A stretch of DNA of 64,000 nt from Burkholderiales bacterium. GTDB taxonomy: Bacteria; Pseudomonadota; Gammaproteobacteria; Burkholderiales; Ga0077523. A program made the translations under genes and the position numbers. Under the pieces are notes generated by a model. It was not told where the DNA came from, did not search any database, and saw only the letters and a program-made list of their open reading frames with translations. Where the stretch lies: NCBI GenBank assembly GCA_965279325.1, contig OZ257154.1, forward strand, positions 3,521,340 through 3,585,339, read 5' to 3'. Each line of letters starts with the position of its first letter. Position 1 is the first letter of the stretch. Shown in pieces: positions 1 to 19,182 of this stretch.

Positions 1-597
1 CGCTATTCGGTGCGCTGGGCGGGAGAGCGCACGGATCTCTCCGGCTTTCTTTCCGCCTTCCATAACATTCCCGGTGGCAACGACGGTGACCAGGCGACCT
101 TCGATCGATCGCGACCTGGTGCGAGTGCAACTTATACGCTGTATCGCTATGGCGCTTCCGTAACCCAGACCCTCCCGGCCGATATCCAGATACGGCTCTC
201 GGCCAATGCCCAATACACGAGCGAACCTCTGGTTTCGGGCGAACAGTACGGTATCGGCGGCATGGATTCGGTGCGCGGCTTCATCGAGCGCGAGATCGTC
301 AACGACCGCGGCAGCCGCGTCTCGCTCGAGCTCTTCAGCCCCGACTTCGGCAGCCGTCTCTTTGCCGGAGCCAATGCGCGCATGGTGGCCTTCGGCGACG
401 CAGCCCAGGTGTCGCGTGTGCGCCCGCTTCCCGGCGAGGTGGTGAACGAATCGATCAGCGGTGCCGGTGTCGGCTTGCGGGCGAACTACAAGGCGATGTT
501 CTCGCTGCGGCTGGACTATGGCGTCGTGATCCAGCCGGGTGGGCTCCAGAGTCGCGGTGACCAGCGCCTGCAGGGCGTTGCCGCGGTGTACTTCTGA
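1..597 (+). CDS. TpsB-type outer-membrane transporter (ShlB/FhaC/HecB family), C-terminal fragment; 5' end outside window
   Basis: Frame open from base 1. Contains GIGGMDSVRGF motif and a beta-barrel-like C-terminus ending in F (GVAAVYF*). Lies 10 nt upstream of a TPS-domain exoprotein gene. Confidence 0.85.
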   Translation, partial: RYSVRWAGERTDLSGFLSAFHNIPGGNDGDQATFDRSRPGASATYTLYRYGASVTQTLPADIQIRLSANAQYTSEPLVSGEQYGIGGMDSVRGFIEREIVNDRGSRVSLELFSPDFGSRLFAGANARMVAFGDAAQVSRVRPLPGEVVNESISGAGVGLRANYKAMFSLRLDYGVVIQPGGLQSRGDQRLQGVAAVYF

Positions 598-607
598 GGC
601 GATACGG

Positions 608-3600
608 ATGAGCCGCCGCCGGGAATTCAGACCGACCACCCTCGCCGTCGCGCTCGCCGCGTGCTTTCCGATCGCGTCCATCGGCAATCCGCTCGACCCG
701 GCGGTCGTGGTGGGTGGAGCGACGTTCCAGACCCAGGGCAATACGCTGACCGTCACCAATGCGCCGGGGACGGTGATCAACTGGCAGTCGTTCTCCATCG
801 GCCAGGACGAGGTCACGCGCTTCATCCAGCAATCGGCCGCGAGCCAGGTGCTGAACCGTGTGATCGGCGGCGATCCCAGCCAGATCCTGGGTACTCTCCA
901 GTCCAACGGCCAGGTGTTCCTGATCAATCCCAACGGGATCGTCTTCGGTGTCGGCGCGCAGGTGGACGTCGCGGGCCTCGTCGTCTCGTCGCTCGGCATC
1001 ACCAACGCCGATTTCCTTTCCGGGCGGTTGTCCTTCGCCAGCGGCGCGACCGCGGGCAGCATCCGCAACGATGGTACGTTGCGGGCCGTCGACGGCGGTT
1101 CGATCTATCTCATCGCGCCTTCCATCGAGAACCACGGCATCGTCGCCGCGCCCGACGGATCCGTGGTGCTCGCGGCGGGCAAGACCGCGACCCTGATGGA
1201 TTCGAACCGGCCGTTCGTGCAGGTCGAGATCACGGCGGGTGGCGAAGCCATCAATGTCGGGCAACTGGTGGCGAGCAACGTCGGCATCTATGCCGGTGCG
1301 GTCCGCGTGAGTGGAACGGTCGAAGCCACGCATGCCGTGATGGATGAGTCCGGCCGGATCCGTTTCGCCGCGACCGGTGACACGACGATCACCGCAGACG
1401 GCGTGGTGAAGGCCGATGGTGCCTCGGGCGGTGAAGTGCGAATCGAGTCCGGCGGCACGACCCTGGTCGACGGGAAGATCACGGCCAACGGCAGCAGCGG
1501 CACCGGCGGCACCATCGTGCTGCTGGGAGCGCAGGTGGGCTTGCGGGAGGAGAGCTTCGTCGACGCATCGGGATTGCGCGGCGGCGGCAGCGTGTTCGTC
1601 GGCGGTGGCGTTCGAGGAATGGACCCGACGCTGCCGAAAGCCTCGCGTACGTACGTCGCGCCCGGTGCCATCGTCCGCGCCGACGCGCAGGAACGCGGCG
1701 ATGGCGGGCGCATCGTCGTCTGGGGTGACCAGTTCGCCGGCGTTCACGGAGCGTTGTCGGCGCGCGGCGGTGCAGTCGGCGGCAATGGGGGTTTCATCGA
1801 GACCTCGGGCGGCTCGCTCGTGGTGTCGTCCACGCCGGATGTCACCGCACCGGCGGGTGTCGGCGGAACCTGGCTCATCGACCCGAACAACATCACGATC
1901 GTGGCGGGCACCGGGTTCACGGGCATCAACAACGTCAACCCGTTCGCATCCACCGTCGACGGTGCACAACTCGGCGTCACGTTGATCCGCAATGCGCTGA
2001 CCGGTGGAGCGAACGTCACGATCACGACGGGTGCGGGCGGCAGCCAGGCCGGCGACATCGTCTGGAGCACCGGCGCGGCGCTGGATTACAACGGCTCCGG
2101 CACGAACTCGCTCACGTTGTCGGCGCATAACAGCATCACGCTGAGCTCGAACATCAGCGACAGCAATGCGACGACCACTGACCGGCTCAATCTGACGCTC
2201 ACGCCCAACAGCGACGGTGTCGGCGGTGGTGGTGTCACCGTGATGGCGTCCACCGTCCTGGATCTGAAAGGTGGATTGCTGCAGGTCAACGGTGGCGGCG
2301 GCATCACTTTCGCGAATGGCTCGACGCTGTCCAATGCCACGCTTCAGGCCGGCGCCGTCACGCTGAACAGCGGGAGCATCTACTTCAACGGCATTGCACT
2401 CGCGACGGACCTCACCGTCCCGTCCGGCACGACGTTGCGAGTGGACAGCGGGGATCTGACGTTGAGCGGCGCGAATCGTACGCTCACGCTGGCCGGAGAC
2501 ATGTACCTCTACCAGCAGACCGGGACGCAGACCCTCGGCGGGGCAGGACGAATCGTGTTCGCCAGCAGTGGGGCGACGATCTACTCGCCCTATGGCGGCA
2601 GTACGCAGGTGATCGGATCGGGGATCACGCTGACGGGTACCACCAACGGACAGTTCCAGAGCTGGGGCAACTTCCGCAACGAAGGGATCATCCGTTCCGA
2701 GGTCGCCGGGACCACCATCACGGTGACCAAGCAGAACACCGCCGGTACCAGGGCGGTGAACGTCGGGTTGATCGAGGCGACGGCTGGCTCGGTGACCCTG
2801 GGCGGCGGGCCCTGGGAGAACGAGGACGGTCCGACCAACGGGACGATCCGCGCCAACGGCGGCACGCTCAACCTGAACGGCGCATTCAGCACGGCCACCC
2901 TGGGCAACCTGCAATCGCCCTCGGGTGTGATGCAGATCGGTAGTGGTGGTGTGCTCACCAACACCGGCCAGACGCTGGCGTTGGGCAGCGGACTGACCAC
3001 CGCCTCGTTGCGGTTGGCCAATGGTGCAATCACCGGCGGCACCATCACCACGGCCAATGGTGCGACCTTCACGCAACTGGGTAGCGGTACCAGTTACCTG
3101 AACGGCGTCACGCTGGGCACCGACTTCGTCGTCCCGTCCGGTGCAGTGCTGCGGGTGGATAGCGGCGACCTGAACCTGAGTGGGACCAACCGCGTGCTGA
3201 CGCTGCAGGGTGATATTTACCTGTATCAGCAGACCGGCACGCAGACCCTGGGCGGGACGGGCCGGATCGTGTTCGCCAACAATGGCGCGCAGATCTACGC
3301 GCCCTATGGCGGCAGCACGCAAGTGATCGGCCCCGGGATCACGCTCACGGGGACGACCAACGGGCAGTTCCAGAGCTGGGGCAACATCCGCAACGAAGGG
3401 ACGATCCGTTCGGAAGTGGCCGGTACCACGATCACGGTGACCAAGCAGAACACCGGCGGCACCAAGGCGGTGAACGTCGGGACGATCGAGGCTACAGCGG
3501 GCGTGGTCACGCTCGCGGGCGGTTCGTGGGAGAACGAGGACGGGGCGTTGAACGGGACGATCCGTTCGGCCGGCGGGACGATGAACCTCACCGGCGGCTT

Positions 3601-6600
3601 CAGCACCGCCACGCTGGGCAATCTGCAATCGCCTTCTGGCGTGATGCAGATTGGCACTAGCGGCGTGCTGACCAATACCGGCGAGACGCTGGCACTCGGT
3701 AGCGGACTGACCACCGCCTCGTTGCGGCTGGCGGGCGGTGCGATCAACGGTGGAACCATCACCACGGCCAATGGCGCGACCTTCACGCAACTGGGCAGCG
3801 GCACCAGCTACCTGAACGGCGTCACGCTGGGCACCGACTTCGTCGTCCCGTCCGGTGCAGTGCTGCGGGTGGATAGCGGCGACCTGAACCTGAGTGGGAC
3901 CAACCGCGTGCTGACGCTGCAGGGTGATATTTACCTGTATCAGCAGACCGGCACGCAGACCCTGGGCGGGACGGGCCGGATCGTGTTCGCCAACAATGGC
4001 GCGCAGATCTACGCGCCCTATGGCGGCAGCACGCAAGTGATCGGCCCCGGGATCACGCTCACGGGGACGACCAACGGGCAGTTCCAGAGCTGGGGCAACA
4101 TCCGCAACGAAGGAACGATCCGTTCGGAAGTGGCCGGCACGACGATCACGGTGACCAAGCAGAACACCGGTGGCACCAAGACGGTGAACGTCGGGCTGAT
4201 CGAAGCGGTGGCCGGGTCGGTAACCTTGAGCGGTGGTCCGTGGGAGAACGAAGACGGGGCGCTCAACGGCACCATCCGCGCGGGCGCGGCGGGCACGGTC
4301 AACCTCAATGGTGCGTTCAACACCGCCACGCTGGGCAACCTGCAGACCACCGGCGCGGGTGTGATGCAGCTGACGGCCAGCGGCTCGATCGCGAACACGG
4401 GCCAGACGCTGACCCTGGGTGGGACGGGGACTTCGGCTTCATTGCGGATCGCAGGCGGAGCGATCAACGGCGGCACTATCACCACGGCCAACGGTGCATC
4501 CCTCACACAGCTCGCTAGCGGCTACAGCTACCTGAACGACGTCACGCTGGACACCGACTTCACCGTCCCGGCGGGCGGGATCCTGCGCGTCGACAGCGGC
4601 GGTCTGACGTTGGCCGGTACCAATCGCACGCTCACGCTGGTCGGGGACATGTACCTGTACCAGCAGACGGGGACACAGACCCTGGGCGGTACCGGCCGGA
4701 TCGTGTTCGCCAACGCGGGCGCGCAGATCTACAGCAACTACGCCGGCAACACCGTGGTGGTGGGCCCGAACGTCACGGTGAGCGGCACTACCAACGGCGG
4801 CCTCCAGCTGTACAGCAACTTCCGCAACGAGGGGACGATCCGTTCGGAAGTGGCGGGCACGACGATCACGGTGACCAAGCAGAACACCGGCGGCACCAAG
4901 GCGGTGAACGTCGGGCTGATCGAAGCGGTGGCCGGGTCGGTAACCCTTAGCGGTGGTCCGTGGGAGAACGAAGACGGTGCGCTCAACGGGACGATCCGTG
5001 CCAACGGCGGCACGCTCAATCTGAACGGCGCGTTCAGTACCGCCACGCTGGGCAACCTGCAATCGCCCGGCGGCGTCCTGCAGATCAGCAGCAGCGGCAG
5101 TCTCGACAACACCGGCCAGACCCTCGCCCTGGGCAGCGGACTGACCACGGCGTCGCTGCGCCTGGCCGGTGGGGCGATCAACGGTGGAACCGTCACGGCG
5201 GCCAATGGCGCGACCTTCACACAGCTCGCCAGCGGTTACAGCTACCTGAACGACGTCACGCTGGACACCGATTTCACCGTCCCGGCGGGCGGTATCCTGC
5301 GCGTCGACAGCGGCGGTCTGACGTTGGCCGGCGCCAACCGCACGCTCACGCTGGCCGGGGACATGTACCTGTACCAGCAGACCGGAACGCAAACGCTCGG
5401 CGGCACGGGTCGCATCGTGTTCGCCAACGCGAATGCGCAGATCTACAGCAACTACACCAACAACACCGTGGTGGTGGGCCCGAACGTCACGGTGAGCGGC
5501 ACCACCAACGGCAGCTTCCAGCTGTACAGCAGCTTCCGCAACGAAGGGACGATCCGTTCGGAAGTGGCCGGCACGACGATCACGGTGACCAAGCAGAACA
5601 CCGGTGGCACCAAGGCGGTGAACGTCGGGCTGATCGAAGCGGTGGCCGGATCGGTAACCTTGAGCGGTGGTCCGTGGGAGAACGAAGACGGGGCGCTCAA
5701 CGGCACCATCCGCGCGGGCGCGGCGGGCACGGTCAACCTCAATGGTGCGTTCAACACCGTCACACTGGGCAACCTGCAGGCGACCGGCGCAGGCGTGATG
5801 CAGTTGTCGAGCGGCGGCTCGATCGCCAACACCGGCCAGACACTGACGCTGGGTGGCGCGGGAACCTCGGCGTCCCTGCGACTCGCCGGTGGCGCCATCA
5901 CCGGCGGGACGGTCGCGACGGTCAACGGTGCGAGCCTCACCCTGGCTGCGGGCACCAGCCGGATGAATGCGGTGACGCTGGCCACGGATCTGACCGTCCC
6001 CGTGGGATCGGTGCTGCAAGTGGACTCCGGCGATGTGACTCTGAGCGGGTCGAATCGGGTGTTGACGCTGCAGGGTGATATGTACCTGTACCAGCAGACC
6101 GGAACGCAGACCCTGGGCGGCACGGGCCGGATCGTGTTCGCCAACGCGGGCGCGCAGATCTACGCCAACTACACCAACAACACCGTGGTGGTGGGCCCGA
6201 ACGTCACGGTGAACGCAACCACCAACGGAGCCTTCTCGCTGTACAGCAACTTCCGCAACGAGGGGGCGATCCGTTCGGACGTGGCTGGCACCACGATCAC
6301 GGTGAACAAGTACGGCACCGGCACTTCGGAGAACGTCGGGTCGATCGTGGCCGACGGATCATCGGCCGTGGTGCTGAACGGCACCACCGCCACGCTCGAC
6401 AATACCGGCGGCACGATTCGCGCGAGCAATGGCGGGCGCATCGACATCAACACGACCATCGCCACGTCGGATCTCGGGACTCTCGATGCCACCGGCGGCA
6501 CGGTGCGCCTCATGAGCAGTGGCGTGCTCGACAACACGGGCGACACGTTCCAGCCGGGCGTGGACATGGCGGGCTCGCTCACCGTGGCCGGCGGCACGAT

Positions 6601-9600: not shown

Positions 9601-12600
9601 GCTCGAACTGGCCGGCGGTACCCAGACGCTCACCAGCGCTTCGAACCTCTCGGGCAGTGGAACGCTACGCACCAGCGGCGGCAGTCTGGTCGTGAACACC
9701 ACCACACCGAACTTCAGCTTCAACGGCACGGTGCAGACCAGCAGCGGCAGTGCGAGCTTTGCACCGTCGATGACCCTGTCGCAGCTCACGTTGAGCGGTG
9801 GTACGACGACCTTCAATGCTGCGGTGAGCACGCCACGGCTGACCCAGAGCGGCGGTACGCTCGCCGGCGCAAGTACGCTCACGCTGAGCGGTCCCGGCTC
9901 CACCTGGAGCGGTGGCACGTGGAGCGGTGGTGGCCGCGTGGTGCTGAACACCGGGACCGATCTCGTGGCCAGCGGCAACTCTGCTACTACGCAGCTTGCG
10001 GGTCGCACGCTGGAGATCCAGAGCGGCGCGAGCGCGACCTTCAACGGCGAGATCGAATCCGAGCCCGGGACGAGCGTGATCGCCAACGCCGGCACGCTGA
10101 CCCTGGCGGGAACGCGGCTGAGCCACATCTACAACGCCAGCGGCACGATCACGGTGAACAACACCGGCACGATCAACAAGACCGGCACGGGCACCTACAG
10201 CCTTGGCGCCAATCTGAACAACGACGCGGTGTTGAATGTCCTCGCCGGCAATCTCACGAACGACGGCAATGGGACCAGCACGGGCGATCTCGATATCGCC
10301 GCCTCGGCGACCTATCAGCACGCCGGCGGAACGCAGACGTTGACCAACGCATCCGGCGTGACCGGCGTCGGCGAGTTGCTGGTGTCCGGCGGTACCTTGG
10401 CGGTGAACACGCCGACTGCCGGATTCGCGCATACGGGCGTCATCCGGAACACCGGCGGACTGGCGAGTTTCGCCGCGAATCTCACGCCGTCGCACGTGGC
10501 TCTCTCCGGCGGTACGACGACCTTCAACGGCAGCGTCATCACGCCGTTGCTCAGTCAGAGCGGCGGCACGCTTGCAGGCGGGAGTCTGGTGACGCTGACC
10601 GGCGCCGGATCGACCTGGACCGGTGGAACGTGGACCAGCAACGGCACCGTGCGCCTGAACCCGGGTGCATCGTTGACCGCCAATGGCAGCTCCGCCACCA
10701 CGCAGCTTGCGGGTCGCACGCTGGAGATCCAGAGCGGTGCGAGCGCGACCTTCAACGGCGAGATCGAATCCGAGCCCGGTACGAGCGTGATCGCGAATGC
10801 CGGCACGCTGACCCTGGCGGGCACGCGGCTGAGCCACATCTACAACGCCAGCGGCACGATCACGGTGAACAACACCGGCACGATCAACAAGACCGGCGCC
10901 GGCGTTTACGATCTGGGCACCGACTTCAACAACGACGGTACCGTGAACATCCAGGGCGGGACACTGCGCCTGGCCGGCTCCGGCGCCAGCAACGGTACCT
11001 TCGCGATCGGCGGCAGCGTCCTCGAGCAAGCCTTCGGGACGCAGACCTTCACCAGCGCCTCGAGCCTCTCGGGCAGCGGGACGCTGCGCACCAGCGGCGG
11101 CAGTCTCGTGGTCAACACCACCACAGCGAACTTCGGCTTCTCCGGTACGGTACAGACCAGCAACGGCAGTGCGAGCTTCGCCCCGTCGATGACCCTGTCG
11201 CAGCTCACGTTGAGCGGTGGTACGACGACCTTCAATGGCGCGGTGAGCACGCCGCAGTTGACGCAGAGCGCGGGCGTGCTCGCGGGCGCGAGCGTAGTGA
11301 CGCTCACTGGTCCCGGCTCCACCTGGAGCGGCGGTACGTGGACGGGCAACGGCACCGTTCGTCTCGCCTCCGGCGCCGTACTGACGGCGAGCGGCAGCAC
11401 CGCCAGCACGCAGTTGGCCGGTCGCACGCTGGAGATACAGAACGGTGCGAGCGCGATCTTCAACGGCGAGATCGAATCCGAACCCGGCACGAGTGTGATC
11501 AACAACGCCGGGACGCTGACGCTGGCCGGCACGCGGCTGAGCCACGTCTACAACGCCAGCGGCACGATCACGGTGAACAACACCGGGACCATCGAGAAGA
11601 CCGGTACGGGCGCCTACATCCTTGGCGCCAACCTCAACAACAACCAGACCGGTGATATCAACGCGTCCGGGACCCTCGTGCTCGCCGGTGGCACGCTCAC
11701 CAATGCCGGCACCCTGCGCCCGGCGGGTGCCGGCACCATCGGCACGCTCAATCTCGGCGGAAACTTCGTGCAAACCGGCACGGGCGTGATCGAGATCGAG
11801 ACGATCGGTACCGCGCCGGGCGATTCGGACGTGCTCGCCGTGTCGGGCAACGCGGCATTGGGTGGATTGCTGGAACTGGTCGCCATCAACGGCTACACGC
11901 CATCCGGCGCGAGTGCGTACGCCGACGTTCTCACCTACGCATCCCGTACCGGAGCCTTCGAAGCCGTCGGTGGCGCGGCATTCCCGGCGCTTACCCCGAC
12001 CTACGGAGCCAACGGCCTCACGATCGCGATCACCACCGGTGGCTCCATCGTGTGTCCCACCGGCTTCAGCGTGTGCTGGATCGGCACTTCGGATGGCAGC
12101 TGGAACGATACCGCGCAATGGAACACCGGCGCAGTGCCAACGGCAACGGACGATGTGTACGTGGCGGCGCCCGGCAGCATCACCATTACTGCGGCGAACG
12201 GCGGCGCCGTGAATCGACTCGTGAGCGAAGAGAGCTTCCTCCTGGCCGGTGGGACGTTCTTGCTCAACGGCGCATCGTCCGTCGGTCAGACACTGGCGAT
12301 CACGGGCGGTATCTTGCAGGCTAACGCAAACCTGGCGGCTGGATCGATCACCCTCAATGGTGGCGCGCTCAACGTCGGGGCTGGCGCGACGGTGTCCATC
12401 GCGAACCAGTTCGCATGGTCGGGGGGGGGCATCAATGGTGCGGGCACCAGCTCGGTGCTGCAGATCGCCGCGCCCGCCACCGTGAATGTGAGTGGCGCAA
12501 CGAAGGCGTTGGTCAACGTCGCCGTTGTCAACGCCGGCCAGATGAATCTGGGCCTCAGCACGAACAGCATGCTGCAGTTGAACGACGGTGCGTCAATTTC

Positions 12601-15600
12601 GAACAGCGGGACGCTCACGTTCACCGAGACCAACGCGATCGGTAGCGTGTCGGGCTCGGGCAGCCTCACCAATACCGGCACCATCGCTGCCGCCGCGAGC
12701 CGCACGGGCACCGTCCAGTCGACCACGTTCGCCAACAACGGCGGAACGCTGCAGGCGAGCGCGGTGGGCTCTTCGCTGCAGATGCGTTCCGCGTCGAGCA
12801 GCTACAGTGGTACGACGACCGTCGCTGGTACCGGTGTCCGGTTCGATGGCGGGGCACACACGTTCAGCGACGGCGCGACGGTCACGGGCCAGGTGAACCA
12901 GTCCAGCGCCATCACGTTCAATTCGACGGCCATCAACGGAACGTGGAACCAGTCTGGAGGTTCCACCAGCATCGCGGCGGGTGATACGTTGACGTTGAAC
13001 GGCACGGCGAACTGGTCCGGCGGCGGTATCTTCGGTGCGGGGCCAGGCGCAGCGCTCGCGCTTACCACGGGCGACGTGCTGAACGTGAGCGGCGCGACGC
13101 GCGGCTTGACCAATGTCGCCCTGACCAATGCCGGCCAGGTGAACGTCGGGCTCGACACCAACGGCATGCTGCAGCTGAACGACGGTGCCTCGATCGCGAA
13201 CAGCGGCGCACTCACTTTCGCGGAGACCAACGCCATCGGTACCGTTTCCGGGTCGGGCAGCTTTGCCAATGCCGGGACGATCGCCGTGGCCGCCGGCCGG
13301 ACCGGCACGGTCGAATCCACGAGCTTCAGCAATGGTGGCGGAGCCCTGCAGACGGGCTCCGGGTCGGTCCTGCGGATGCGCTCCGGGAACAGCAGCTACT
13401 CCGGCGCAACGACGATCACCGGTACCGGAGTGCAATTCGACGCGGGGACGCACACGTTTGCCGATGGCGCCAGTGTCGTCGGCCAGTTCAATCAGGCAAC
13501 GAACATCGTCTACGGCGACACGGTGCTGGCCGGTGTCTGGAACCTGAGCGCCGGCACGGCCTTGCTGGGTGCCGGCAAGACAATCACGTTGAACGGTACG
13601 GCCAATTGGTCAGGTGGCGGTATCGTCGGCTCGGGACCCACCTCGGCTCTCGCACTGTCCTCGGGCGACACGCTCAACATCACAGGTAGCACCAAGGCGC
13701 TGACCAACGCTCGTGTCGATGCGGGTCCCGGCTCCGCCGTGAACGTGGGCCTGAACACCAATGGAATGCTGCAGTTGAACGACGGTGCGTCGATCACGAA
13801 CAGTGGGACGCTCACGTTCACCGAGACCAACGCGATCGGTAGCGTGTCGGGCTCGGGCAGCCTCACCAATACCGGCACCATCGCTGCCGCCGCGAGCCGC
13901 ACGGGCACCGTCCAGCCGACCACCTTTGCCAACAACGGTGGAACGCTGCAGGCAAACGCGGCTGGCTCCTCGCTCCAGCTGCACTCGGGTTCGAGCAGCT
14001 ACAGTGGCACCACCACGCTCAACGGTACCGGCGTGCAGTTCAGCAGCGGCACCCACAGCTTCGCCGACGGTGCGAGCGTGAACGGCGTGCTGAACCAGTC
14101 TGCCAATCTCGTCTTCGGTACCGTTGCGCTCAACGGCACGTGGAACCAGTCGGGTGGCAACGCCCTGATCGACGCCAACGACACGCTCAGCGTCAACGGC
14201 ATCGTCAACTGGTCCGGCGGCGGCATCGTGGGCAGCGGTGGCTCCTTGCTGCAGGTCGCAGCGCCGGCGCGGTTCAACATGAGCGGGGCGACACGCGCAC
14301 TCACCAATGTGGCACTGGTGAATGCCGGAGTGATGAACCTCGGCCTGAACACCAACGCCGTGCTGCAGTTGAACGATGGGGCGTCAATCGCCAATGCGAG
14401 TACGTTCACTTTCGTCGAAACCAACGCTATCGGCACCGGCTCCGGATCGGGCAGCTTCGTCAACAATGGAACGTTGACGACGGTTGCCGGCGTGGCCGGA
14501 ACCGTGGGCAGCACGTCGTTCACCAACGCAGGTCTGGTGCGGGCCGCCGCCAACGCGAGCGTGGCGCTGCAGGCGGGCGGAACGCACACCGGTGCGTTCG
14601 AAGCGGACACCGGCGGCACCGTGGCATTCAGCGGCGGAACCCACAACCTGGGCGACGGCAGCCGCCTCACCAACGGACTGGTTCAAGTGAACGGGGGCAG
14701 CTTGAATCTCGTCGGGACCGGCGCCGGAACGCTGATACCGGTGGGTGCCGTCGTGTCATTGAGCGGTCAGACACTCGGCGGTTCAGGACTCCTGGACAAC
14801 CGGGGTACCCTCAATCTCGGCAACAGCACCGTCGCGGGCAGCGTGACCAATACCGGGACGTTGAACGTGACCGGCTCCAGCGCCGTCAACGGCGCGCGCT
14901 TCGACCAGAACAACGGAATCCTGTTGCTCAACGCGGGCTCGACGCTGACCAAGAACAGCGGCGTCTTCGCGTGGAACGGCGGTACGCTCGGCGGTCCCGG
15001 CACGCTGACCATGGCGAATGGAGCGTTGTTCGACATCGCAGGAACCGGCGCCCGCGTGCTCGACGGTCCGACGCTCAACATCGGCGGTCTCGGTCTGCAG
15101 GCCGGCTCGCTCGAAGTGCGCTCGGGGAGCCTCACCACCGCCGGCATCTCCACCATCGTGTCCGGCGCGACGCTCGTCCTCAATGGTGGCACCTTCAACA
15201 ACACCGCGCCCATGACTGTCGCGGGCACACTCGATCTGCGGACCGGCAGCCTTGCGCTCAACGGCGACGCGAGCCATACCGGCAGCTTCCTGCTCGGATC
15301 CGGGACGACGCTCGCTTTTGCATCCGGAATCCAGACGCTCACCGGACCGCTGTCGGGCAACGGCACGGTGGTGGTGTCCGGTGCGACGGTGACGTCGACT
15401 GGGTCCTATTCCGCGGCCACCACCAACGTCTCCGGCGGGACGCTCGCACTGAACGGCGCCGCGCAATCCCAGATCGTCAACGTGGGCCAGGGCGGAACGT
15501 TGGCGACAGGCGGAACCGTCACGTTCACGTCGCTCAACGTCAGCGGCGGGACTGTCGATGCGCAAGGCACCCTGAACGCCACCAATCTGTCGGTGGGGTC

Positions 15601-16513
15601 GGGTGCGGTGAACGGCGCTGGAACGGTGAACGTCGCGAACTTCACGCAATCCGGTGGCAGCGTGGACGGCACCGGCACTTTCAACGTGACCAACCGCTAC
15701 AACGCGACCGGCGGTTCGCTCGGCACCCGCTGGCGTGTGATGGCCATCACGCACACGCAGGGTGACCTCGTGTTGAATCGGGTGCACGCGGCGGGTACGA
15801 CGTCGGTCAGCGTGAGCAACGGCGCCCTGCGGGTCGTGGCGCTCGGCAGTCGCGCCGGTATCAGCGGCAGTACCGGCGTGACGGTGAACGCGTCGGGCGA
15901 CCTGGTATTGCAGGGCGGTTCCGGCGAGGGGGCGAGCGCCTTCGTGCAGTCCGGTGGCGGACCCTGCACGATCAACGTCGGCGGTACCACGCGACTGATC
16001 GGCGGGACCGGACCAAGCTCCAATGCCTTCATCAACGGCACTCCCGATGTCGGCAGCTTCGCGCAGCCGATCCGGCTCGCGGGACCGATCGAATTCATCG
16101 ACGGCTCGGGCGGTACGGCGCAGGTGCAGTCTTTCTCGCCGAGCAGCGTGTACGTGAACTTCCCGACCTTGAGTTCGGGCGGCTACACCGTCAACGGCGT
16201 CGAGGTGACATCTGCTGGATCGTCGGGATTCTTCGCGGGCGGCGCGCCTGCAGTGTTGAACAGCAATCTGTTCATCACGTACGGAGCGCTAGTGGTGCCG
16301 CCACCGCCACCACCACCACTCGGAGGTGGCACGTTGCAGCTTCCACTACTGACCGGAGCGCTCGAAGGCGGACCGTTAGCCACCAACGTGGTGGTTACCG
16401 CATCGGAACGTGGTCTGCTGTTCAACTTCCCAGAACCGCCGAAACCCGCTCTCGGCCCGGGTAGCCAAGGCGTGGTCGGAACCGAACGCCGGAGCATTCC
16501 ACAATGTCGATAG
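608..16513 (+). CDS. Giant two-partner-secretion exoprotein (TpsA / filamentous-haemagglutinin-like), 5,301 aa
   Basis: ATG at 608 verified in sequence (ORF track opens at 539). Signal peptide MSRRREFRPTTLAVALAACFPIASIG. TPS domain with QVLNRVIGGDPSQILG...QVFLINPNGIVFG, then GGFIETSG...WLIDPNNITIV. Remainder is Gly/Thr/Asn/Ser-rich beta-helix-like repeats. Confidence 0.92.
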   Translation: MSRRREFRPTTLAVALAACFPIASIGNPLDPAVVVGGATFQTQGNTLTVTNAPGTVINWQSFSIGQDEVTRFIQQSAASQVLNRVIGGDPSQILGTLQSNGQVFLINPNGIVFGVGAQVDVAGLVVSSLGITNADFLSGRLSFASGATAGSIRNDGTLRAVDGGSIYLIAPSIENHGIVAAPDGSVVLAAGKTATLMDSNRPFVQVEITAGGEAINVGQLVASNVGIYAGAVRVSGTVEATHAVMDESGRIRFAATGDTTITADGVVKADGASGGEVRIESGGTTLVDGKITANGSSGTGGTIVLLGAQVGLREESFVDASGLRGGGSVFVGGGVRGMDPTLPKASRTYVAPGAIVRADAQERGDGGRIVVWGDQFAGVHGALSARGGAVGGNGGFIETSGGSLVVSSTPDVTAPAGVGGTWLIDPNNITIVAGTGFTGINNVNPFASTVDGAQLGVTLIRNALTGGANVTITTGAGGSQAGDIVWSTGAALDYNGSGTNSLTLSAHNSITLSSNISDSNATTTDRLNLTLTPNSDGVGGGGVTVMASTVLDLKGGLLQVNGGGGITFANGSTLSNATLQAGAVTLNSGSIYFNGIALATDLTVPSGTTLRVDSGDLTLSGANRTLTLAGDMYLYQQTGTQTLGGAGRIVFASSGATIYSPYGGSTQVIGSGITLTGTTNGQFQSWGNFRNEGIIRSEVAGTTITVTKQNTAGTRAVNVGLIEATAGSVTLGGGPWENEDGPTNGTIRANGGTLNLNGAFSTATLGNLQSPSGVMQIGSGGVLTNTGQTLALGSGLTTASLRLANGAITGGTITTANGATFTQLGSGTSYLNGVTLGTDFVVPSGAVLRVDSGDLNLSGTNRVLTLQGDIYLYQQTGTQTLGGTGRIVFANNGAQIYAPYGGSTQVIGPGITLTGTTNGQFQSWGNIRNEGTIRSEVAGTTITVTKQNTGGTKAVNVGTIEATAGVVTLAGGSWENEDGALNGTIRSAGGTMNLTGGFSTATLGNLQSPSGVMQIGTSGVLTNTGETLALGSGLTTASLRLAGGAINGGTITTANGATFTQLGSGTSYLNGVTLGTDFVVPSGAVLRVDSGDLNLSGTNRVLTLQGDIYLYQQTGTQTLGGTGRIVFANNGAQIYAPYGGSTQVIGPGITLTGTTNGQFQSWGNIRNEGTIRSEVAGTTITVTKQNTGGTKTVNVGLIEAVAGSVTLSGGPWENEDGALNGTIRAGAAGTVNLNGAFNTATLGNLQTTGAGVMQLTASGSIANTGQTLTLGGTGTSASLRIAGGAINGGTITTANGASLTQLASGYSYLNDVTLDTDFTVPAGGILRVDSGGLTLAGTNRTLTLVGDMYLYQQTGTQTLGGTGRIVFANAGAQIYSNYAGNTVVVGPNVTVSGTTNGGLQLYSNFRNEGTIRSEVAGTTITVTKQNTGGTKAVNVGLIEAVAGSVTLSGGPWENEDGALNGTIRANGGTLNLNGAFSTATLGNLQSPGGVLQISSSGSLDNTGQTLALGSGLTTASLRLAGGAINGGTVTAANGATFTQLASGYSYLNDVTLDTDFTVPAGGILRVDSGGLTLAGANRTLTLAGDMYLYQQTGTQTLGGTGRIVFANANAQIYSNYTNNTVVVGPNVTVSGTTNGSFQLYSSFRNEGTIRSEVAGTTITVTKQNTGGTKAVNVGLIEAVAGSVTLSGGPWENEDGALNGTIRAGAAGTVNLNGAFNTVTLGNLQATGAGVMQLSSGGSIANTGQTLTLGGAGTSASLRLAGGAITGGTVATVNGASLTLAAGTSRMNAVTLATDLTVPVGSVLQVDSGDVTLSGSNRVLTLQGDMYLYQQTGTQTLGGTGRIVFANAGAQIYANYTNNTVVVGPNVTVNATTNGAFSLYSNFRNEGAIRSDVAGTTITVNKYGTGTSENVGSIVADGSSAVVLNGTTATLDNTGGTIRASNGGRIDINTTIATSDLGTLDATGGTVRLMSSGVLDNTGDTFQPGVDMAGSLTVAGGTIRGGIVQDDPANPAALILVNGTSPRFDNVTVDYDLALAANQLLYVDNGNLTLANGRTLTIGSAAGAAYLYFTQNAAQELRTTAGGSAQVLFANASGTSYVYSNSSTLSHQLTIRPGITIGGTGDGLVYAPTLVNEGTIRAGATGQSINVQAYSFDNLSGGLVEAASGGSILFQNYATSASEFTNAGTIRAAPGGTVELDYGTFSGTFLSSLTSTGGTVAVGSVVDNTNQTLTLDPATIGNLNLFSGGTIRGGTVTSVGGATLTIPNAGSITLDGVTLDTDLVAAGNSTISVPGTLTIVGGHRLSLGSAGTSATLVFNGAAANSLLRGGTGTAEVAFASGTGSNLYHNSGTLDIGSGVLIHSTGGSGTINNNGRVFTNSGEIDADVSGQTINLVATGMTNSGLVGASNGGVLALSGTFNPASLGVFDANGGTVRIGSSAIFDLQGGVFAMTAATGGVELSAGTIRNGTLRDAGAAMTVGPSSGTLDGVTLDQNLTLASRNLNVPNGLAIQGGRTVNLEGGGVLTLTGTGVARAITRGGSGTAEIVLGNGAISANNTGTLTLGQGLLVRSGANGNGSIGSGNTTALINQGTIAVDQSGRSISLFANATGSIDNQGLIRVVQGASLSTTGHALVNNNTAVGGGLQIGGTITLGTGITLTNNGRFGPGNSPGLATISGNLVLGTNSVLDIEVEGLARGTQYDAIDVTGTATLGGAVNVIRFGAYTETAGDILRVVTAQALSGNFRSVTGTATWTVQTDVRNAFLQAISSDPILLWTLNGSGAWTTAANWNLNRVPTATDIVLIDQPGTINVALSSGALAARRLFAFDGVTINGATLTLAGSSFVGAGSSFALSSGGLGGAGDLTLTGASTWSGGVLSGGSALRLASGAVLTASGNSATTQLAGRTLEIQSGASATFNGEIESEPGTSVINNAGTLTLAGTRLSHIYNASGTITVNNTGTVNKTGAGVYDLGTDFNNDGTVNIQGGTLRLAGSGTSNGVVAIGGNVLELAGGTQTLTSASNLSGSGTLRTSGGSLVVNTTTPNFSFNGTVQTSSGSASFAPSMTLSQLTLSGGTTTFNAAVSTPRLTQSGGTLAGASTLTLSGPGSTWSGGTWSGGGRVVLNTGTDLVASGNSATTQLAGRTLEIQSGASATFNGEIESEPGTSVIANAGTLTLAGTRLSHIYNASGTITVNNTGTINKTGTGTYSLGANLNNDAVLNVLAGNLTNDGNGTSTGDLDIAASATYQHAGGTQTLTNASGVTGVGELLVSGGTLAVNTPTAGFAHTGVIRNTGGLASFAANLTPSHVALSGGTTTFNGSVITPLLSQSGGTLAGGSLVTLTGAGSTWTGGTWTSNGTVRLNPGASLTANGSSATTQLAGRTLEIQSGASATFNGEIESEPGTSVIANAGTLTLAGTRLSHIYNASGTITVNNTGTINKTGAGVYDLGTDFNNDGTVNIQGGTLRLAGSGASNGTFAIGGSVLEQAFGTQTFTSASSLSGSGTLRTSGGSLVVNTTTANFGFSGTVQTSNGSASFAPSMTLSQLTLSGGTTTFNGAVSTPQLTQSAGVLAGASVVTLTGPGSTWSGGTWTGNGTVRLASGAVLTASGSTASTQLAGRTLEIQNGASAIFNGEIESEPGTSVINNAGTLTLAGTRLSHVYNASGTITVNNTGTIEKTGTGAYILGANLNNNQTGDINASGTLVLAGGTLTNAGTLRPAGAGTIGTLNLGGNFVQTGTGVIEIETIGTAPGDSDVLAVSGNAALGGLLELVAINGYTPSGASAYADVLTYASRTGAFEAVGGAAFPALTPTYGANGLTIAITTGGSIVCPTGFSVCWIGTSDGSWNDTAQWNTGAVPTATDDVYVAAPGSITITAANGGAVNRLVSEESFLLAGGTFLLNGASSVGQTLAITGGILQANANLAAGSITLNGGALNVGAGATVSIANQFAWSGGGINGAGTSSVLQIAAPATVNVSGATKALVNVAVVNAGQMNLGLSTNSMLQLNDGASISNSGTLTFTETNAIGSVSGSGSLTNTGTIAAAASRTGTVQSTTFANNGGTLQASAVGSSLQMRSASSSYSGTTTVAGTGVRFDGGAHTFSDGATVTGQVNQSSAITFNSTAINGTWNQSGGSTSIAAGDTLTLNGTANWSGGGIFGAGPGAALALTTGDVLNVSGATRGLTNVALTNAGQVNVGLDTNGMLQLNDGASIANSGALTFAETNAIGTVSGSGSFANAGTIAVAAGRTGTVESTSFSNGGGALQTGSGSVLRMRSGNSSYSGATTITGTGVQFDAGTHTFADGASVVGQFNQATNIVYGDTVLAGVWNLSAGTALLGAGKTITLNGTANWSGGGIVGSGPTSALALSSGDTLNITGSTKALTNARVDAGPGSAVNVGLNTNGMLQLNDGASITNSGTLTFTETNAIGSVSGSGSLTNTGTIAAAASRTGTVQPTTFANNGGTLQANAAGSSLQLHSGSSSYSGTTTLNGTGVQFSSGTHSFADGASVNGVLNQSANLVFGTVALNGTWNQSGGNALIDANDTLSVNGIVNWSGGGIVGSGGSLLQVAAPARFNMSGATRALTNVALVNAGVMNLGLNTNAVLQLNDGASIANASTFTFVETNAIGTGSGSGSFVNNGTLTTVAGVAGTVGSTSFTNAGLVRAAANASVALQAGGTHTGAFEADTGGTVAFSGGTHNLGDGSRLTNGLVQVNGGSLNLVGTGAGTLIPVGAVVSLSGQTLGGSGLLDNRGTLNLGNSTVAGSVTNTGTLNVTGSSAVNGARFDQNNGILLLNAGSTLTKNSGVFAWNGGTLGGPGTLTMANGALFDIAGTGARVLDGPTLNIGGLGLQAGSLEVRSGSLTTAGISTIVSGATLVLNGGTFNNTAPMTVAGTLDLRTGSLALNGDASHTGSFLLGSGTTLAFASGIQTLTGPLSGNGTVVVSGATVTSTGSYSAATTNVSGGTLALNGAAQSQIVNVGQGGTLATGGTVTFTSLNVSGGTVDAQGTLNATNLSVGSGAVNGAGTVNVANFTQSGGSVDGTGTFNVTNRYNATGGSLGTRWRVMAITHTQGDLVLNRVHAAGTTSVSVSNGALRVVALGSRAGISGSTGVTVNASGDLVLQGGSGEGASAFVQSGGGPCTINVGGTTRLIGGTGPSSNAFINGTPDVGSFAQPIRLAGPIEFIDGSGGTAQVQSFSPSSVYVNFPTLSSGGYTVNGVEVTSAGSSGFFAGGAPAVLNSNLFITYGALVVPPPPPPPLGGGTLQLPLLTGALEGGPLATNVVVTASERGLLFNFPEPPKPALGPGSQGVVGTERRSIPQCR
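2288..6590 (+). repeat. Coding tandem repeat family A: six copies, period 714-720 bp (238-240 aa), inside tpsA
   Basis: YLYQQTGTQTLGG landmark (TAC codon) at 2504, 3218, 3932, 4652, 5366, 6083. Copies 2 and 3 are almost base-identical over more than 400 bp (about 3070-3480 vs 3785-4195). Three degenerate units follow to about 8400. Confidence 0.9.
9190..11660 (+). repeat. Coding tandem repeat family B: four copies, period 708-711 bp (236-237 aa), inside tpsA
   Basis: GGGTCGCACGCTGGAGATCCAGAGCGG landmark at 9292, 10000, 10711, about 11419. Peptide TQLAGRTLEIQSGASATFNGEIESEPGTSVI.NAGTLTLAGTRLSHIYNASGTITVNNTGT recurs four times. Confidence 0.9.
12330..14680 (+). repeat. Coding tandem repeat family C: four copies, period 594-600 bp (~199 aa), inside tpsA
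   Basis: ATGCTGCAG(T/C)TGAACGA landmark at 12569, 13166, 13766, 14360. Peptide NWSGGGI...MLQLNDGASI.NSG.LTF.ETNAIG.VSGSGS recurs. Copies 1 and 3 share a near-identical stretch of about 150 bp. Confidence 0.9.
12421..12429 (+). repeat. G9 homopolymer inside the tpsA reading frame
   Basis: Read directly: ...gcatggtc ggggggggg catc..., encoding W-S-G-G-G-I. The same motif in the other three family-C units is encoded TGGTC(C/A)GG(C/T)GGCGG(T/C), without a run. Confidence 0.95.
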
Positions 16514-17859
16514 TGTCCAGGACGCGGATCGTCGCGGTGGCAGTACTGTGCCTGTGGACGGTGGCCGGCCATGCCGCCGAACCCGCCGCGCGTGCATCAG
16601 GCGTGAGCGGTGTGGTCATCATCGAACGGGCGGCGGGCGGCGTGAAGTTCGCCGCAGATGGCACTGCACTCGAGACGGGCGACACGCTGCGCACGGAAGC
16701 GGCCAGCCAGACTCGGCTCGATTTCGCCGACGGCACCCAGGTGTTGTTGCGCCCGCAGTCCGTGTTCAAGGTCGAGAAGTACCGCTACAACGAGGCGAAG
16801 CCGCAGGAGGACGGGGCGCTGCTGCGCCTGCTCAAAGGCGGCCTGCGAACCGTCACGGGCCTGATGGGCAAGCGACGACCGGATGCATTCCAGCTCGGCG
16901 CCGGCACCGCGACGATCGGTATCCGCGGCACCGATTTCGTCGTCCGCATGTGCACCGACGATTGCGTCGCCGAGACGAAGGTGGCGGCCAAGACGGATCT
17001 GCCCCCGTTGCCAAGCTTCGCGGGACGGGTGATGAGTGTGCAGGGCCGGCTCCAGGTGGATCGAGGGGCCGGACCGCGGCCGCTGGCGGCAGGCGAGACT
17101 TTCTACGGCGGCGACACTCTGATCACGGCACCGTCCGCGCTGGCAGTCATCCTGTTTCGCGACGGCATGCGCGTCGTGCTCAAGGCCGACACGAAATTCC
17201 TCGTGGACACATTCCGCTACGAAGCCGCGAATCCGGAGCGCGGCAACGCGATCCTGCGCCTGCTCAAGGGCAGCCTGCGCGCGGTGACCGGTCTCGTCGC
17301 CCAGCGCAACCCGTCGCAGGTGCAGTTCGGTACTTCGGTAGCGACCATCGGCATCCGCGGTACGGGATTCGATCTGCGCTGTACCGGACCGTGCGCGAGC
17401 GAGGCGCCGGTCGCCTCGGACGAACTCGACGGACTGGCGGCTTACACCTGGAAGGGCTGCACGACGATGCTGACCGAGCAGGGCAACCTCGATCTGTGCG
17501 AGGGGCAGGCCGGTCAGGTTTCCGGCCCGGGCAAGGCACCGCGCAAGTTCGATGCGGTGCCGCGCTACTTCCTCGACGACAAGTCACCCCGGCCGGACGC
17601 GATCGATGGCGATCCGGATACGGTGTTCGGTCCGCAGAAGCAGGACTTCTCTTCCGCGGGCACTTACGTCTACGTCCGGGATGGCGCCGTCGTGCTGCGG
17701 GGTGGCGGTACGGAACAGGGCCTCGCGCGTGGCGAGGTCGGGTATCTCGATCAGAACGGGCGGTTTTCGCGCCTGCCCACGCCCCCGCTATTTATCGATC
17801 GCGATCCGGTGCTGCGTCACATGGATACCGACGCGAGCATGAGTTGCAGCGTGCCGTGA
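16504..17859 (+). CDS. Periplasmic protein with two tandem FecR-like domains, 451 aa
   Basis: Signal peptide MSIVSRTRIVAVAVLCLWTVAGHAAEP. Internal duplication: GDTLRT..RLDFADGTQVLL..LLRLLKGGLRTVTGL..ATIGIRGTDF and GDTLIT..VILFRDGMRVVL..ILRLLKGSLRAVTGL..ATIGIRGTGF. Start overlaps the tpsA stop by 10 nt. Confidence 0.8.
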   Translation: MSIVSRTRIVAVAVLCLWTVAGHAAEPAARASGVSGVVIIERAAGGVKFAADGTALETGDTLRTEAASQTRLDFADGTQVLLRPQSVFKVEKYRYNEAKPQEDGALLRLLKGGLRTVTGLMGKRRPDAFQLGAGTATIGIRGTDFVVRMCTDDCVAETKVAAKTDLPPLPSFAGRVMSVQGRLQVDRGAGPRPLAAGETFYGGDTLITAPSALAVILFRDGMRVVLKADTKFLVDTFRYEAANPERGNAILRLLKGSLRAVTGLVAQRNPSQVQFGTSVATIGIRGTGFDLRCTGPCASEAPVASDELDGLAAYTWKGCTTMLTEQGNLDLCEGQAGQVSGPGKAPRKFDAVPRYFLDDKSPRPDAIDGDPDTVFGPQKQDFSSAGTYVYVRDGAVVLRGGGTEQGLARGEVGYLDQNGRFSRLPTPPLFIDRDPVLRHMDTDASMSCSVP

Positions 17860-17872
17860 ACGACCGTCGGTA

Positions 17873-18529
17873 CTAGCGGGTCGGGGTCACGGCGTCGCGG
17901 ATTCGCAGAGCGGCCTGCAACATCGATTCGCCCGTGCGGCGTTCGATGTGTTCCACGCGCAGGAAGCGCGCGCTGTTGTGATCGGGATCGATGTCGGACG
18001 CCAGCGCCCTGCGGCTCAGGTGGAAGCGCATGAGTCGGTCGGCGCGATCGGCGTGACGATCGGTGAGATAGAGCCCCATGTAGATGTCGGCCAGGAGTTC
18101 GGCGCGCTGCACCTGGGCCGATGCTTCGCCGGCGCGCGCGGAATCGCTCGCCACGGCCTGGGCCTTGATGAACCCGGGGGACGCATTCGCGTGCTGTTCG
18201 GCGCAGTGTCCCATTTCATGGGCCAGCAGGCCCTCGAGATACGGCGCGCGATCCGACGGGTCCAGCTGCGCGAGCGTGGTGTCCAGGAACGAGGAGTTCC
18301 TGAGGGCGGCTACTTCGCAATCGGCCGGCCTGGCGAACGCAGCCAGGGCCGTGGTGATGGACGGGTCCGTGACGTGCCGCAGTCGGGGTTGCCACGCAGG
18401 GTCCGCGGCGGTACGGACCGCGGCCGCGAAGGCCTGATCGATGTCGGTCGCCGATTCCGCGGGTGCCGGCAGGAACGTCGCCAGGACTGCCGCCATGACG
18501 GGGATTGCCGGGGTTTGCCAGTGCCACAT
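17873..18529 (-). CDS. Hypothetical exported protein with HEXXH zinc-metallopeptidase motif (LLAHEMGHCAEQH), 218 aa
   Basis: ATG with GGAG 8-11 nt upstream. Hydrophobic N-terminus (AIPVMAAVLATFLPAPAESA). Single HEMGH motif; family not recognised. Stop lies 14 nt from the stop of the convergent FecR gene. Confidence 0.6.
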   Translation of the reverse strand: MWHWQTPAIPVMAAVLATFLPAPAESATDIDQAFAAAVRTAADPAWQPRLRHVTDPSITTALAAFARPADCEVAALRNSSFLDTTLAQLDPSDRAPYLEGLLAHEMGHCAEQHANASPGFIKAQAVASDSARAGEASAQVQRAELLADIYMGLYLTDRHADRADRLMRFHLSRRALASDIDPDHNSARFLRVEHIERRTGESMLQAALRIRDAVTPTR

Positions 18530-18604
18530 GTTTGCGTCGCTCCGTAGGTTCAGTGTTCGAACCGACGACTACCGGGCGACGACACGCGCTGGCGGGGAAA
18601 CGTC

Positions 18605-18712
18605 ACGGTCCCTCGAACCGGCAGCCCCGCTGGCATTCGGGAGAGATGCTCTCCCGGGTAGCCCGGTGGCTTTGCGTCCCCGTCTTTCGACGGGTTTGCC
18701 CTTGTAGCTCGT
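18605..18712 (-). promoter_or_regulatory. c-di-GMP class I (GEMM-I) riboswitch aptamer in the 5' leader of the HEXXH gene
   Basis: Minus-strand read: AAGGGCAAACCCGUCGAAAGACGGGGACGCAAAGCCACCGGGCUACCCGGGAGAGCAUCUCUCCCGAAUGCCAGCGGGGCUGCCGG. It has the hallmark GGCAAACC-[GAAA-capped helix]-GGGACGCAAAGCC...CCGG...AGCGGGGYURCCGG. Confidence 0.8.
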
Positions 18713-18861
18713 CCATTGCCGGGAGGAATGAAACCCGATCCCGGCGACGCACCTATTTCGGCGGTCCGGACACTTTCTTGAGGTGATTTTTCGGGTGGCC
18801 GTCTGGCGCGCTAGATGCTTCGGTCATGACCCCCGCCACTGCCCGCCCAATCGGAGGCTCC

Positions 18862-19176: not shown

Positions 19177-19182
19177 GCCGCC

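Follow-up and report, generated by a model that had tools for sequence, protein, structure and literature searches.

Two-partner secretion (TPS, type Vb) is usually presented as the simplest pathway, with one cargo (the exoprotein TpsA) and one pore (the transporter TpsB), and the retention and release of very large TpsAs are known for few pathogens only. A stretch of 64,000 nucleotides (nt) from a Burkholderiales bacterium (GenBank assembly GCA_965279325.1, contig OZ257154.1, positions 3,521,340 to 3,585,339; the whole stretch is referred to here as the window) raises the question of whether such a system can include a third protein, and what this protein would do. Here, the end of a tpsB gene and a giant tpsA gene are followed by an overlapping gene for a secreted protein with two FecR-type domains, in which the original prediction, made from the sequence alone, had seen a co-expressed periplasmic component acting as chaperone, secretion checkpoint or signal transducer. 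Our results indicate that the tandem-FecR protein is very probably a dedicated third component of the TPS system; further, we consider the chances about even that it is a trans-acting, disulfide-coupled periplasmic stopper which retains TpsA in TpsB. The three genes are located as follows:

1..597, plus strand: 3' end of tpsB (last 198 codons and the stop), encoding the C-terminal part of a ShlB/FhaC-type Omp85 barrel
608..16513, plus strand: tpsA, encoding an exoprotein of 5,301 amino acids (aa), from ATG 608 to TAG 16511-16513
16504..17859, plus strand: gene of the tandem-FecR protein (451 aa, secreted), which is proposed to act as a retention partner in the periplasm; it overlaps tpsA by 10 nt

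The gene models of the original prediction were confirmed. Reading frame 1 of 1-597 is uninterrupted between the window edge and a TGA stop (595-597), and the C-terminal barrel of its product matches the Pfam families ShlB (E 4.5e-14) and Omp85 (E 2e-9). After a gap of 10 nt, tpsA follows on the same strand, in the adjacent and co-oriented arrangement of type Vb systems; its product, which is also present in identical form among public gene calls, carries the signal-like N-terminal segment and NPNG-containing TPS domain of type Vb exoproteins, as well as the previously quoted strings QVFLINPNGIVFG and GGFIETSG...WLIDPNNITIV. The third gene starts within the last 10 nt of tpsA (16504-16513), its ATG (16504-16506) sharing bases with the TGT codon of TpsA Cys5300 (16505-16507), and its product matches Pfam FecR (PF04773, E 7e-21) in two stretches, this being its sole Pfam match. 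As far as its features can be tested in the window, the locus qualifies as a genuine type Vb system.

The association of the FecR gene with TPS genes was assessed in a locus scan including one genome per species (80 loci), by tblastn and all-against-all clustering of the surrounding genes. In the 46 species-representative loci with at least 5 kb of sequence on each side of the FecR gene, tpsB and/or tpsA were present in every case (46/46), and no locus lacked both (0/46); tpsB adjoined the FecR gene in 37/46, and tpsA was found within the locus in 34/46. The three genes occurred in five orders across Beta-, Gamma- and Deltaproteobacteria (B, tpsB; A, tpsA; F, FecR gene):

B-A-F: the window, Limnobacter
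A-B-F: Gallionella, Sideroxydans, and metagenome-assembled genomes (MAGs) of Nitrosomonadales type
A-F-B: Rhodoferax, Aquabacterium
B-F-A: several Gammaproteobacteria
F-B-A: Craterilacuibacter

The trio is thus conserved in varying order, and a linkage that survives rearrangement of gene order is a classical signature of a functional module. A co-expressed third component is supported far more strongly by this linkage than by the stop/start overlap alone. Similar arrangements were found in individual homologues: a 46%-identical FecR homologue likewise overlaps the 3' end of a gene whose product exceeds 3,800 aa, and one from Nitrosomonadales is located between a 2,553-aa TPS gene and a POTRA_2/ShlB gene. 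On a deltaproteobacterial metagenome contig (3114-12115), a 704-aa version with three FecR repeats lies 3' of a TPS gene whose exoprotein is split into two open reading frames (ORFs; 1,066 and 1,097 aa), the second ending ...EEEEEEKKRGRLICR; this locus indicates that the family reaches beyond Beta- and Gammaproteobacteria, and that the number of repeats varies. The three-repeat protein also displays a faint MtxA_N match. By ORF clustering of 83 loci, no conserved fourth gene (oxidoreductase, protease, kinase or sigma factor) was found across lineages; the next commonest clusters corresponded to lineage-specific housekeeping synteny (ubiE, UbiB, a Tim44-like gene, aspS and a DUF3683 oxidase).

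A specific link between the exoprotein and its putative partner is provided by their extreme C-termini, where the following elements are found:

16298..16510, plus strand: C-terminal tail of TpsA, consisting of PPPPPPP (aa 5231-5237) and a 64-residue non-repetitive tail ending ...RRSIPQCR
16505..16507, plus strand: codon of TpsA Cys5300, the penultimate residue and a conserved terminal cysteine
17845..17847, plus strand: codon of FecR-protein Cys448, located in a low-confidence tail and the proposed disulfide partner of TpsA Cys5300

Alignments of the FecR family revealed five conserved cysteines, namely C150/C154 and C293/C297, which form a CxxxC pair after each repeat, and an invariant Cys448; Cys16, within the signal peptide, is unconserved. 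A cysteine was present within the last 7 residues in all 76 complete FecR partners from the species loci (76/76), and in 129/130 FecR representatives sharing less than 50% mutual identity, the exception having it at position -9. Further, the number of cysteines after residue 30 was odd in 118/130 of these representatives, the commonest number being five (two CxxxC pairs and the terminal residue). On the exoprotein side, FecR-linked TpsAs displayed a cysteine in their last 5 residues in 45/46 cases, usually at position -2, with endings such as ...PQCR, ...PMCK, ...EICR, ...AVCK and ...VCQP; the deltaproteobacterial TpsA follows the same rule (...RLICR), and the sole TpsA without a terminal cysteine probably reflects a frameshift in a MAG. 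The preceding 100 residues contained no further cysteine in 40 of the 45 cysteine-terminated sequences, and in several linked TpsAs of 1,200-3,000 aa the terminal cysteine is the only one; in the window TpsA, whose overall cysteine content is 0.1%, Cys5300 stands alone in the last 180 residues, the next being Cys5120. As these linked TpsAs have a single terminal cysteine, no intramolecular (cis) loop is possible. Conversely, none of eight control TpsAs without a FecR neighbour ended in a cysteine (0/8 vs 45/46; Fisher p = 9e-9); these comprised two from Ralstonia, EtpA from E. coli, and one each from Salmonella, Caballeronia, Cupriavidus, Methylosinus and Paraburkholderia. That terminal cysteines are conserved in a matched and specific way in TpsA and in its FecR partner is a new observation. 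TpsB was also considered as the source of the partner cysteine and was ruled out, with no conserved cysteine column and 18/58 sequences being cysteine-free.

In the control survey, no tandem-FecR gene was found on plasmids, which carry 288 TPS-domain genes. The best plasmid match, on plasmid 4 of Variovorax sp. SRS16 (14346-19513), consists of tpsB, an 886-aa tpsA ending ...MYCN, and then a split partner made up of a 156-aa one-repeat FecR protein without terminal cysteine and a 108-aa protein ending ...DCEVR. The latter is the counterpart of the distal part of the C-terminal domain of the tandem protein, and this split suggests that the FecR repeats form a module which can be separated from the cysteine-bearing C-terminal domain.

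The product of the third gene was characterized through sequence profiles and an AlphaFold2 model (pLDDT 86.8, pTM 0.80, from a 70-sequence alignment), and the following parts were recognized:

16491..16494, plus strand: GGAG Shine-Dalgarno-like element read from the sequence, 9 nt 5' of the FecR-gene ATG and within the tpsA coding sequence
16504..16575, plus strand: signal peptide, aa 1-24 (...VAGHA/AEP, cleavage before AEP), without lipobox
16588..16953, plus strand: FecR repeat 1, aa 29-150, ending in GIRGTDF, with the C150-x3-C154 pair at or just past its 3' end (Cys154 at 16963-16965)
17017..17385, plus strand: FecR repeat 2, aa 172-294, ending in GIRGTGF, with the C293-x3-C297 pair at or just past its 3' end (Cys297 at 17392-17394)
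17431..17799, plus strand: C-terminal beta-rich domain or domains, aa 310-432, with an invariant W316 and a P-R-P-D motif (aa 362-365)

The model displays two similar beta-rich repeats (aa 29-150 and 172-294) and the beta-rich C-terminal region (aa 310-432), for which neither a known family nor an NCBIfam match was found, followed by a tail (aa 444-451) of low confidence (pLDDT < 50) that is probably flexible. The protein would be Sec-exported, soluble, of about 45 kDa, and presumably periplasmic. More than 3,000 homologues, nearly all of 440-500 aa, were found in a set of 5.8 billion proteins, and the family comprises 2,240 clusters at 50% identity (E<=1e-30) in a representative library; public annotation of its members reads only 'FecR domain-containing protein' or 'hypothetical protein'. 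A G-x-R-G-T motif (GIRGT) is almost invariant in both repeats (16918-16932 and 17350-17364, aa 139-143 and 283-287). In FoxR-type anti-sigma factors, a Gly-Thr bond in the FecR-type domain is a self-cleavage site.

The best NCBIfam match of the FecR protein was NF033682, 'retention_LapA' (E 1.9e-9, profile positions 8-68 of 145), to which the Variovorax single-domain version also matched; the resemblance to the LapA retention module lies in the N-terminal half of repeat 1 (aa 33-93). The corresponding profile positions of repeat 2 match PDB entry 5ix9, the MpIBP periplasmic anchoring domain, whose sequence is in turn matched by the FecR family profile (E 2.3e-6). In a Foldseek comparison, the AlphaFold2 model was aligned to 5ix9 with probability 1.00, a target-normalized TM score of 0.75 and a root-mean-square deviation of 1.2 A over 62 columns, in agreement with a RIN-like beta-sandwich. 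The 5ix9 structure shows the N-terminal domain of MpIBP, a 1.5-MDa adhesin; this periplasmic domain is reported to exceed the TolC pore size and thereby to block adhesin release (PMC5550230), and the LapA retention module was modelled on this template (bioRxiv 10.1101/198937). What the FecR protein resembles is thus a beta-sandwich of the periplasm which, by plugging a pore in the outer membrane, keeps a giant repetitive adhesin tethered. However, the module in LapA and MpIBP is the adhesin's own N-terminus, in a type I system with a TolC-like LapE and LapG-mediated release, whereas in the window it is a separate, duplicated protein of a type Vb system; no type I secretion genes were found in the window locus, nor was the LapA-type combination of an N-terminal adhesin module and a LapG site, and no LapG-type TAAG site is visible in the window TpsA tail, which was inspected by eye and without a motif search. 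By the criteria of that family, the FecR protein therefore does not count as a LapA retention module, but plausibly works like one.

Retention through a periplasmic C-terminus has precedents among TpsAs. In HMW1 and HxuA, the TpsA C-terminus stays periplasmic by means of an intramolecular disulfide lock (PMC5422565), and CdrA is anchored by a periplasmic C-terminal disulfide element, the 'cysteine hook' (PMC7616799). These systems resemble the proposed one in that the exoprotein is held as its extreme C-terminus, too bulky for TpsB, stays in the periplasm, a disulfide being key; they differ in that the lock lies within the TpsA tail and uses two cysteines, whereas in the window system there is one tail cysteine, and a second protein, of 45 kDa, would provide the bulk. 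The window TpsA accordingly has no two-cysteine cis anchor of the HMW1/HxuA/CdrA type.

We propose a disulfide anchor in trans because the TpsA has a lone terminal cysteine, and the partner has both a spare terminal cysteine and repeats related to a pore plug. According to this model, TpsB would export the 5,301-aa repetitive TpsA, and the FecR protein, with its two FecR-type beta-sandwich repeats and C-terminal domain, would be a retention module supplied in trans. Its unpaired Cys448 would bond to TpsA Cys5300, creating an intermolecular disulfide at the end of the proline-rich, charged tail, which would be the segment kept threaded through TpsB or in the periplasm. As the folded FecR body would exceed the TpsB pore, the TpsA C-terminus would be held in the periplasm or in the pore and the fibre would stay attached to the cell, until it was released when the disulfide was reduced or the tail cleaved by proteolysis. 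Compared with the protein body, the tails of FecR-linked TpsAs contain more Pro, Glu, Lys and Gln and less Gly and Asn, a composition expected for an extended linker. Taken together, the retention-module homology and the matched terminal cysteines point to a retention or anchoring partner over the three roles of the original prediction.

The FecR domain itself is best known from regulators of the FecR/PupR/FoxR type, with which the window protein has in common the PF04773 domain, together with its conserved RGT motif, and the fold. It contains neither an anti-sigma N-domain nor an STN-binding FecR_C, nor any hydrophobic run of more than 7 residues after residue 30, and neither an extracytoplasmic function (ECF) sigma factor nor a TonB-dependent transducer with an STN domain adjoins the genes in the window or forms a conserved cluster with them among the 80 loci. 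The third protein is not a FecR-type anti-sigma factor, as both defining features that were tested are lacking. A further comparison is offered by the LysM-FecR proteins paired with CHASE2 histidine kinases (COG4254; 'BiofilmReg' operon; PMC5192318), which are also secreted, are not anti-sigma factors and are encoded in an operon with an envelope partner; however, their operons contain a CHASE2 kinase with a response regulator, and LysM, neither of which was found in the TPS-linked loci.

Several considerations weigh against the trans-acting stopper. We infer the disulfide, the stopper function and the mode of release, and the contact between TpsA and the FecR protein is suggested by the matched cysteine conservation, for which the control set was small (8 TpsAs) and evolutionarily distant; moreover, the similar C-x-COOH endings could be a common signal for another process. 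The NF033682 match reached 37.8 bits, below the curated cut-off of 50, and spans just the N-terminal half of a FecR repeat, a portion shared with genuine FecR anti-sigma proteins; in Foldseek, the anti-sigma structures 4m0n (E 3e-5) and PupR (6ovk_R, E 9e-4) gave stronger matches than 5ix9. The loci are phylogenetically related, and their counts represent non-independent events. Finally, in 12/46 loci, from the Ramlibacter, Caenimonas, Polaromonas and Variovorax lineages, a FecR-tpsB pair occurs with no tpsA within 10 kb, and yet the FecR proteins retain the terminal cysteine (...NQC[KR]); this arrangement is equally compatible with a primary FecR-TpsB relationship. These pairs are inserted between a gene for a DUF3683/FAD-oxidase and ubiE, a Tim44-like gene and ubiB.

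Other explanations have to account for the same observations. The chaperone or checkpoint of the original prediction, kept here as a rival, would bind the unfolded TpsA or its tail transiently, possibly through a mixed disulfide, and govern export competence or the timing of release without anchoring. The linkage fits this equally well, FecR/PupR-type domains do bind periplasmic partner domains (as in the matched 6ovk structure), a giant repetitive TpsA may plausibly need a holdase, and terminal cysteines would suit a transient bond as much as a permanent one. We nonetheless regard this role as unlikely, since a one-to-one covalent handle at the last residues would be odd for a 5,301-aa client, the nearest functional homologue by sequence is a retention module and not a chaperone, and general periplasmic chaperones suffice for other TpsAs. 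A regulator or plug directed at TpsB, docking on its POTRA domains or pore and gating the channel with TpsA as an indirect partner, would be in line with the closer association of the FecR gene with tpsB (adjoining in 37/46, vs tpsA in the same locus in 34/46), with the 12 pair-only loci, which are of Comamonadaceae type, and with the binding of FecR-family C-terminal domains to beta-rich N-terminal domains of outer-membrane proteins (PupR-PupB, 6ovk). It appears improbable, as the invariant odd cysteine would find no conserved counterpart in TpsB, the terminal cysteine of linked but not of unlinked TpsAs would be left unexplained, and the FecR gene in the window is translationally coupled to tpsA, not to tpsB.

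A signal transducer, which in the manner of FecR or of the LysM-FecR partners of CHASE2 kinases would respond to an external cue or to TpsA itself and its state, and would signal to a membrane sensor encoded elsewhere, is the least supported of the originally suggested roles and in our view very unlikely, the protein having no transmembrane segment, anti-sigma N-domain or FecR_C, and the 80 loci no conserved sigma factor, CHASE2 or kinase gene, nor any other fourth gene. What speaks for it is that the domain family is best known from signalling (the 4m0n and 6ovk matches; FecR-CHASE2 operons, PMC5192318), and that other links between FecR proteins and TPS exist, namely the Methylosinus ECF sigma locus described below and the VreR-controlled TPS expression of P. 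aeruginosa (PMC2729926). As for a coincidental adjacency or annotation artefact, with the FecR gene functionally unrelated to the TPS genes, high-GC DNA does yield many spurious ORFs as a general possibility; here, the product is Pfam-significant and has its thousands of homologues, and with a linkage of 46/46 despite rearrangement, coincidence is effectively refuted and deserves next to no credence.

In the literature searched, no description was found that links a FecR-domain protein to TpsA/TpsB as a partner, in agreement with the original view that the standard TPS model has no such component. Accessory third genes are known for TPS systems, such as HMW1C (PMC3983070) and BcpO (PMC5422565); a three-gene TPS system is therefore not unprecedented in itself, but a FecR partner is. 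HMW1C, BcpO, CdiC and the FhaB prodomain illustrate that a TPS system may include a dedicated extra factor, or a periplasmic C-terminal element governing the fate of TpsA; however, the first is a cytoplasmic glycosyltransferase, the second a small lipoprotein, the third an acyltransferase and the last a prodomain in cis, all unrelated to the window protein and none with FecR domains. A disulfide stopper acting in trans would be a new variant of two-partner secretion. It is conceivable, at somewhat less than even confidence, that tandem-FecR proteins define a widespread and undescribed type Vb subclass, in which the exoprotein is disulfide-tethered, via both C-termini, to a LapA-related stopper. 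If this is true, the surface display of giant fibres could be switched through proteolysis or through the redox state of the periplasm, and type I and type V adhesin systems would have recruited the same plug domain independently of each other, connecting the anchoring of both. The FecR-TPS module is widespread and specific, and a conserved third component would extend the pathway by one part in a large group of environmental bacteria from the Beta-, Gamma- and Deltaproteobacteria, and would assign a function to a large family annotated merely by its FecR domain. Furthermore, these results suggest that iron signalling should not be inferred automatically from a FecR-domain annotation.

The window TpsA is rich in Gly, Thr, Ala, Ser and Asn, and is probably a beta-helical fibre or adhesin. 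Its secretion domain and repeats are arranged as follows, the boundaries of the repeat families being approximate:

725..1408, plus strand: TPS secretion domain, aa 40-267 (PF05860, E 9.8e-32; TIGR01901, E 8e-24; NPNG at aa 107)
1649..7417, plus strand: repeat family R1, about 8 copies of 238-240 aa (714-720 nt)
8465..11992, plus strand: repeat family R2, about 5 copies of 236-237 aa (708-711 nt), 45-82% identical
12005..14677, plus strand: repeat family R3, about 4-5 copies of 199-200 aa (597-600 nt), 39-68% identical

The repeats were mapped by chunk-wise BLASTP, by which the central R1 copies are 74-92% identical at the protein level, and by a search for direct DNA repeats, which were found in frame at 2369-6247 (spacing 714-720), 9191-11617 (708-711) and 12543-14039 (597-600). 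Whole-protein self-BLASTP returned the identity match only, and Tandem Repeats Finder detected no repeats in tpsA, their periods of about 600-720 nt exceeding its 500-nt limit. With copies up to 96% identical at the DNA level, tpsA is a likely hotspot for recombinational length variation and assembly collapse. A homologue search with the TPS domain listed 120 matches, all of them fragments of 400-780 aa without usable C-termini.

The POTRA-encoding 5' part of the window tpsB lies outside the window; its full-length orthologous neighbours in other genomes carry POTRA_2 and ShlB domains, and the window fragment is 26-38% identical to full-length TpsBs adjoining tandem-FecR genes in other species. 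Regarding further partners upstream of tpsB, which the original prediction had envisaged, no additional contigs reaching 5' of tpsB are on record with the FecR protein as query, a homologue search with the TpsB fragment returned just three partial proteins from other organisms, and the B-A-F loci of Limnobacter and Variovorax displayed no conserved gene upstream. In a scan of 15800-18800 for promoters and terminators, the FecR gene was neither preceded by an internal promoter-like site nor followed by a terminator, a result that is uninformative, yet compatible with co-transcription.

The genes 3' of the FecR gene in the window encode a convergent HEMGH-motif protein, an M48 peptidase, a DAO-family oxidoreductase and a PQQ dehydrogenase; the same genes are found downstream in 74-78%-identical relatives, and none recurs in the wider set. 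The convergent 218-aa ORF (17873-18529, minus strand) ends 13 nt past the FecR stop, and its product has a signal-like N-terminus, the HEMGH zinc-metalloprotease motif and a weak NCBIfam match to YpfJ-type metallopeptidases (E 4e-4). It is conserved solely in the 74-78%-identical relatives, and a role as release protease is conceivable but unsupported.

A different FecR-TPS association was observed on plasmid pMSC49a of Methylosinus sp. C49 (NZ_AP022333.1, 2986-27997), where the genes for TonB, an STN-domain protein, an ECF sigma factor, a 315-aa FecR-type protein, a ShlB/FhaC transporter, ExbB, ExbD, TonB, a porin, a PPIase (peptidyl-prolyl isomerase) and YbjN precede that of a 4,128-aa filamentous-haemagglutinin-family TpsA without terminal cysteine. 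This looks like a sigma/anti-sigma-controlled, TonB-linked TPS locus.

Some modules of betaproteobacterial type were found in MAGs labelled Synechococcus sp., Sphingobacterium thalpophilum or Enterobacteriaceae, labels that probably reflect binning contamination rather than true hosts. Cultured carriers of the full module include Limnobacter sp. MED105, Limnobacter alexandrii, Aquabacterium sp. A7-Y, Parvibium lacunae, Craterilacuibacter sp. RT1T and Variovorax sp. SRS16.

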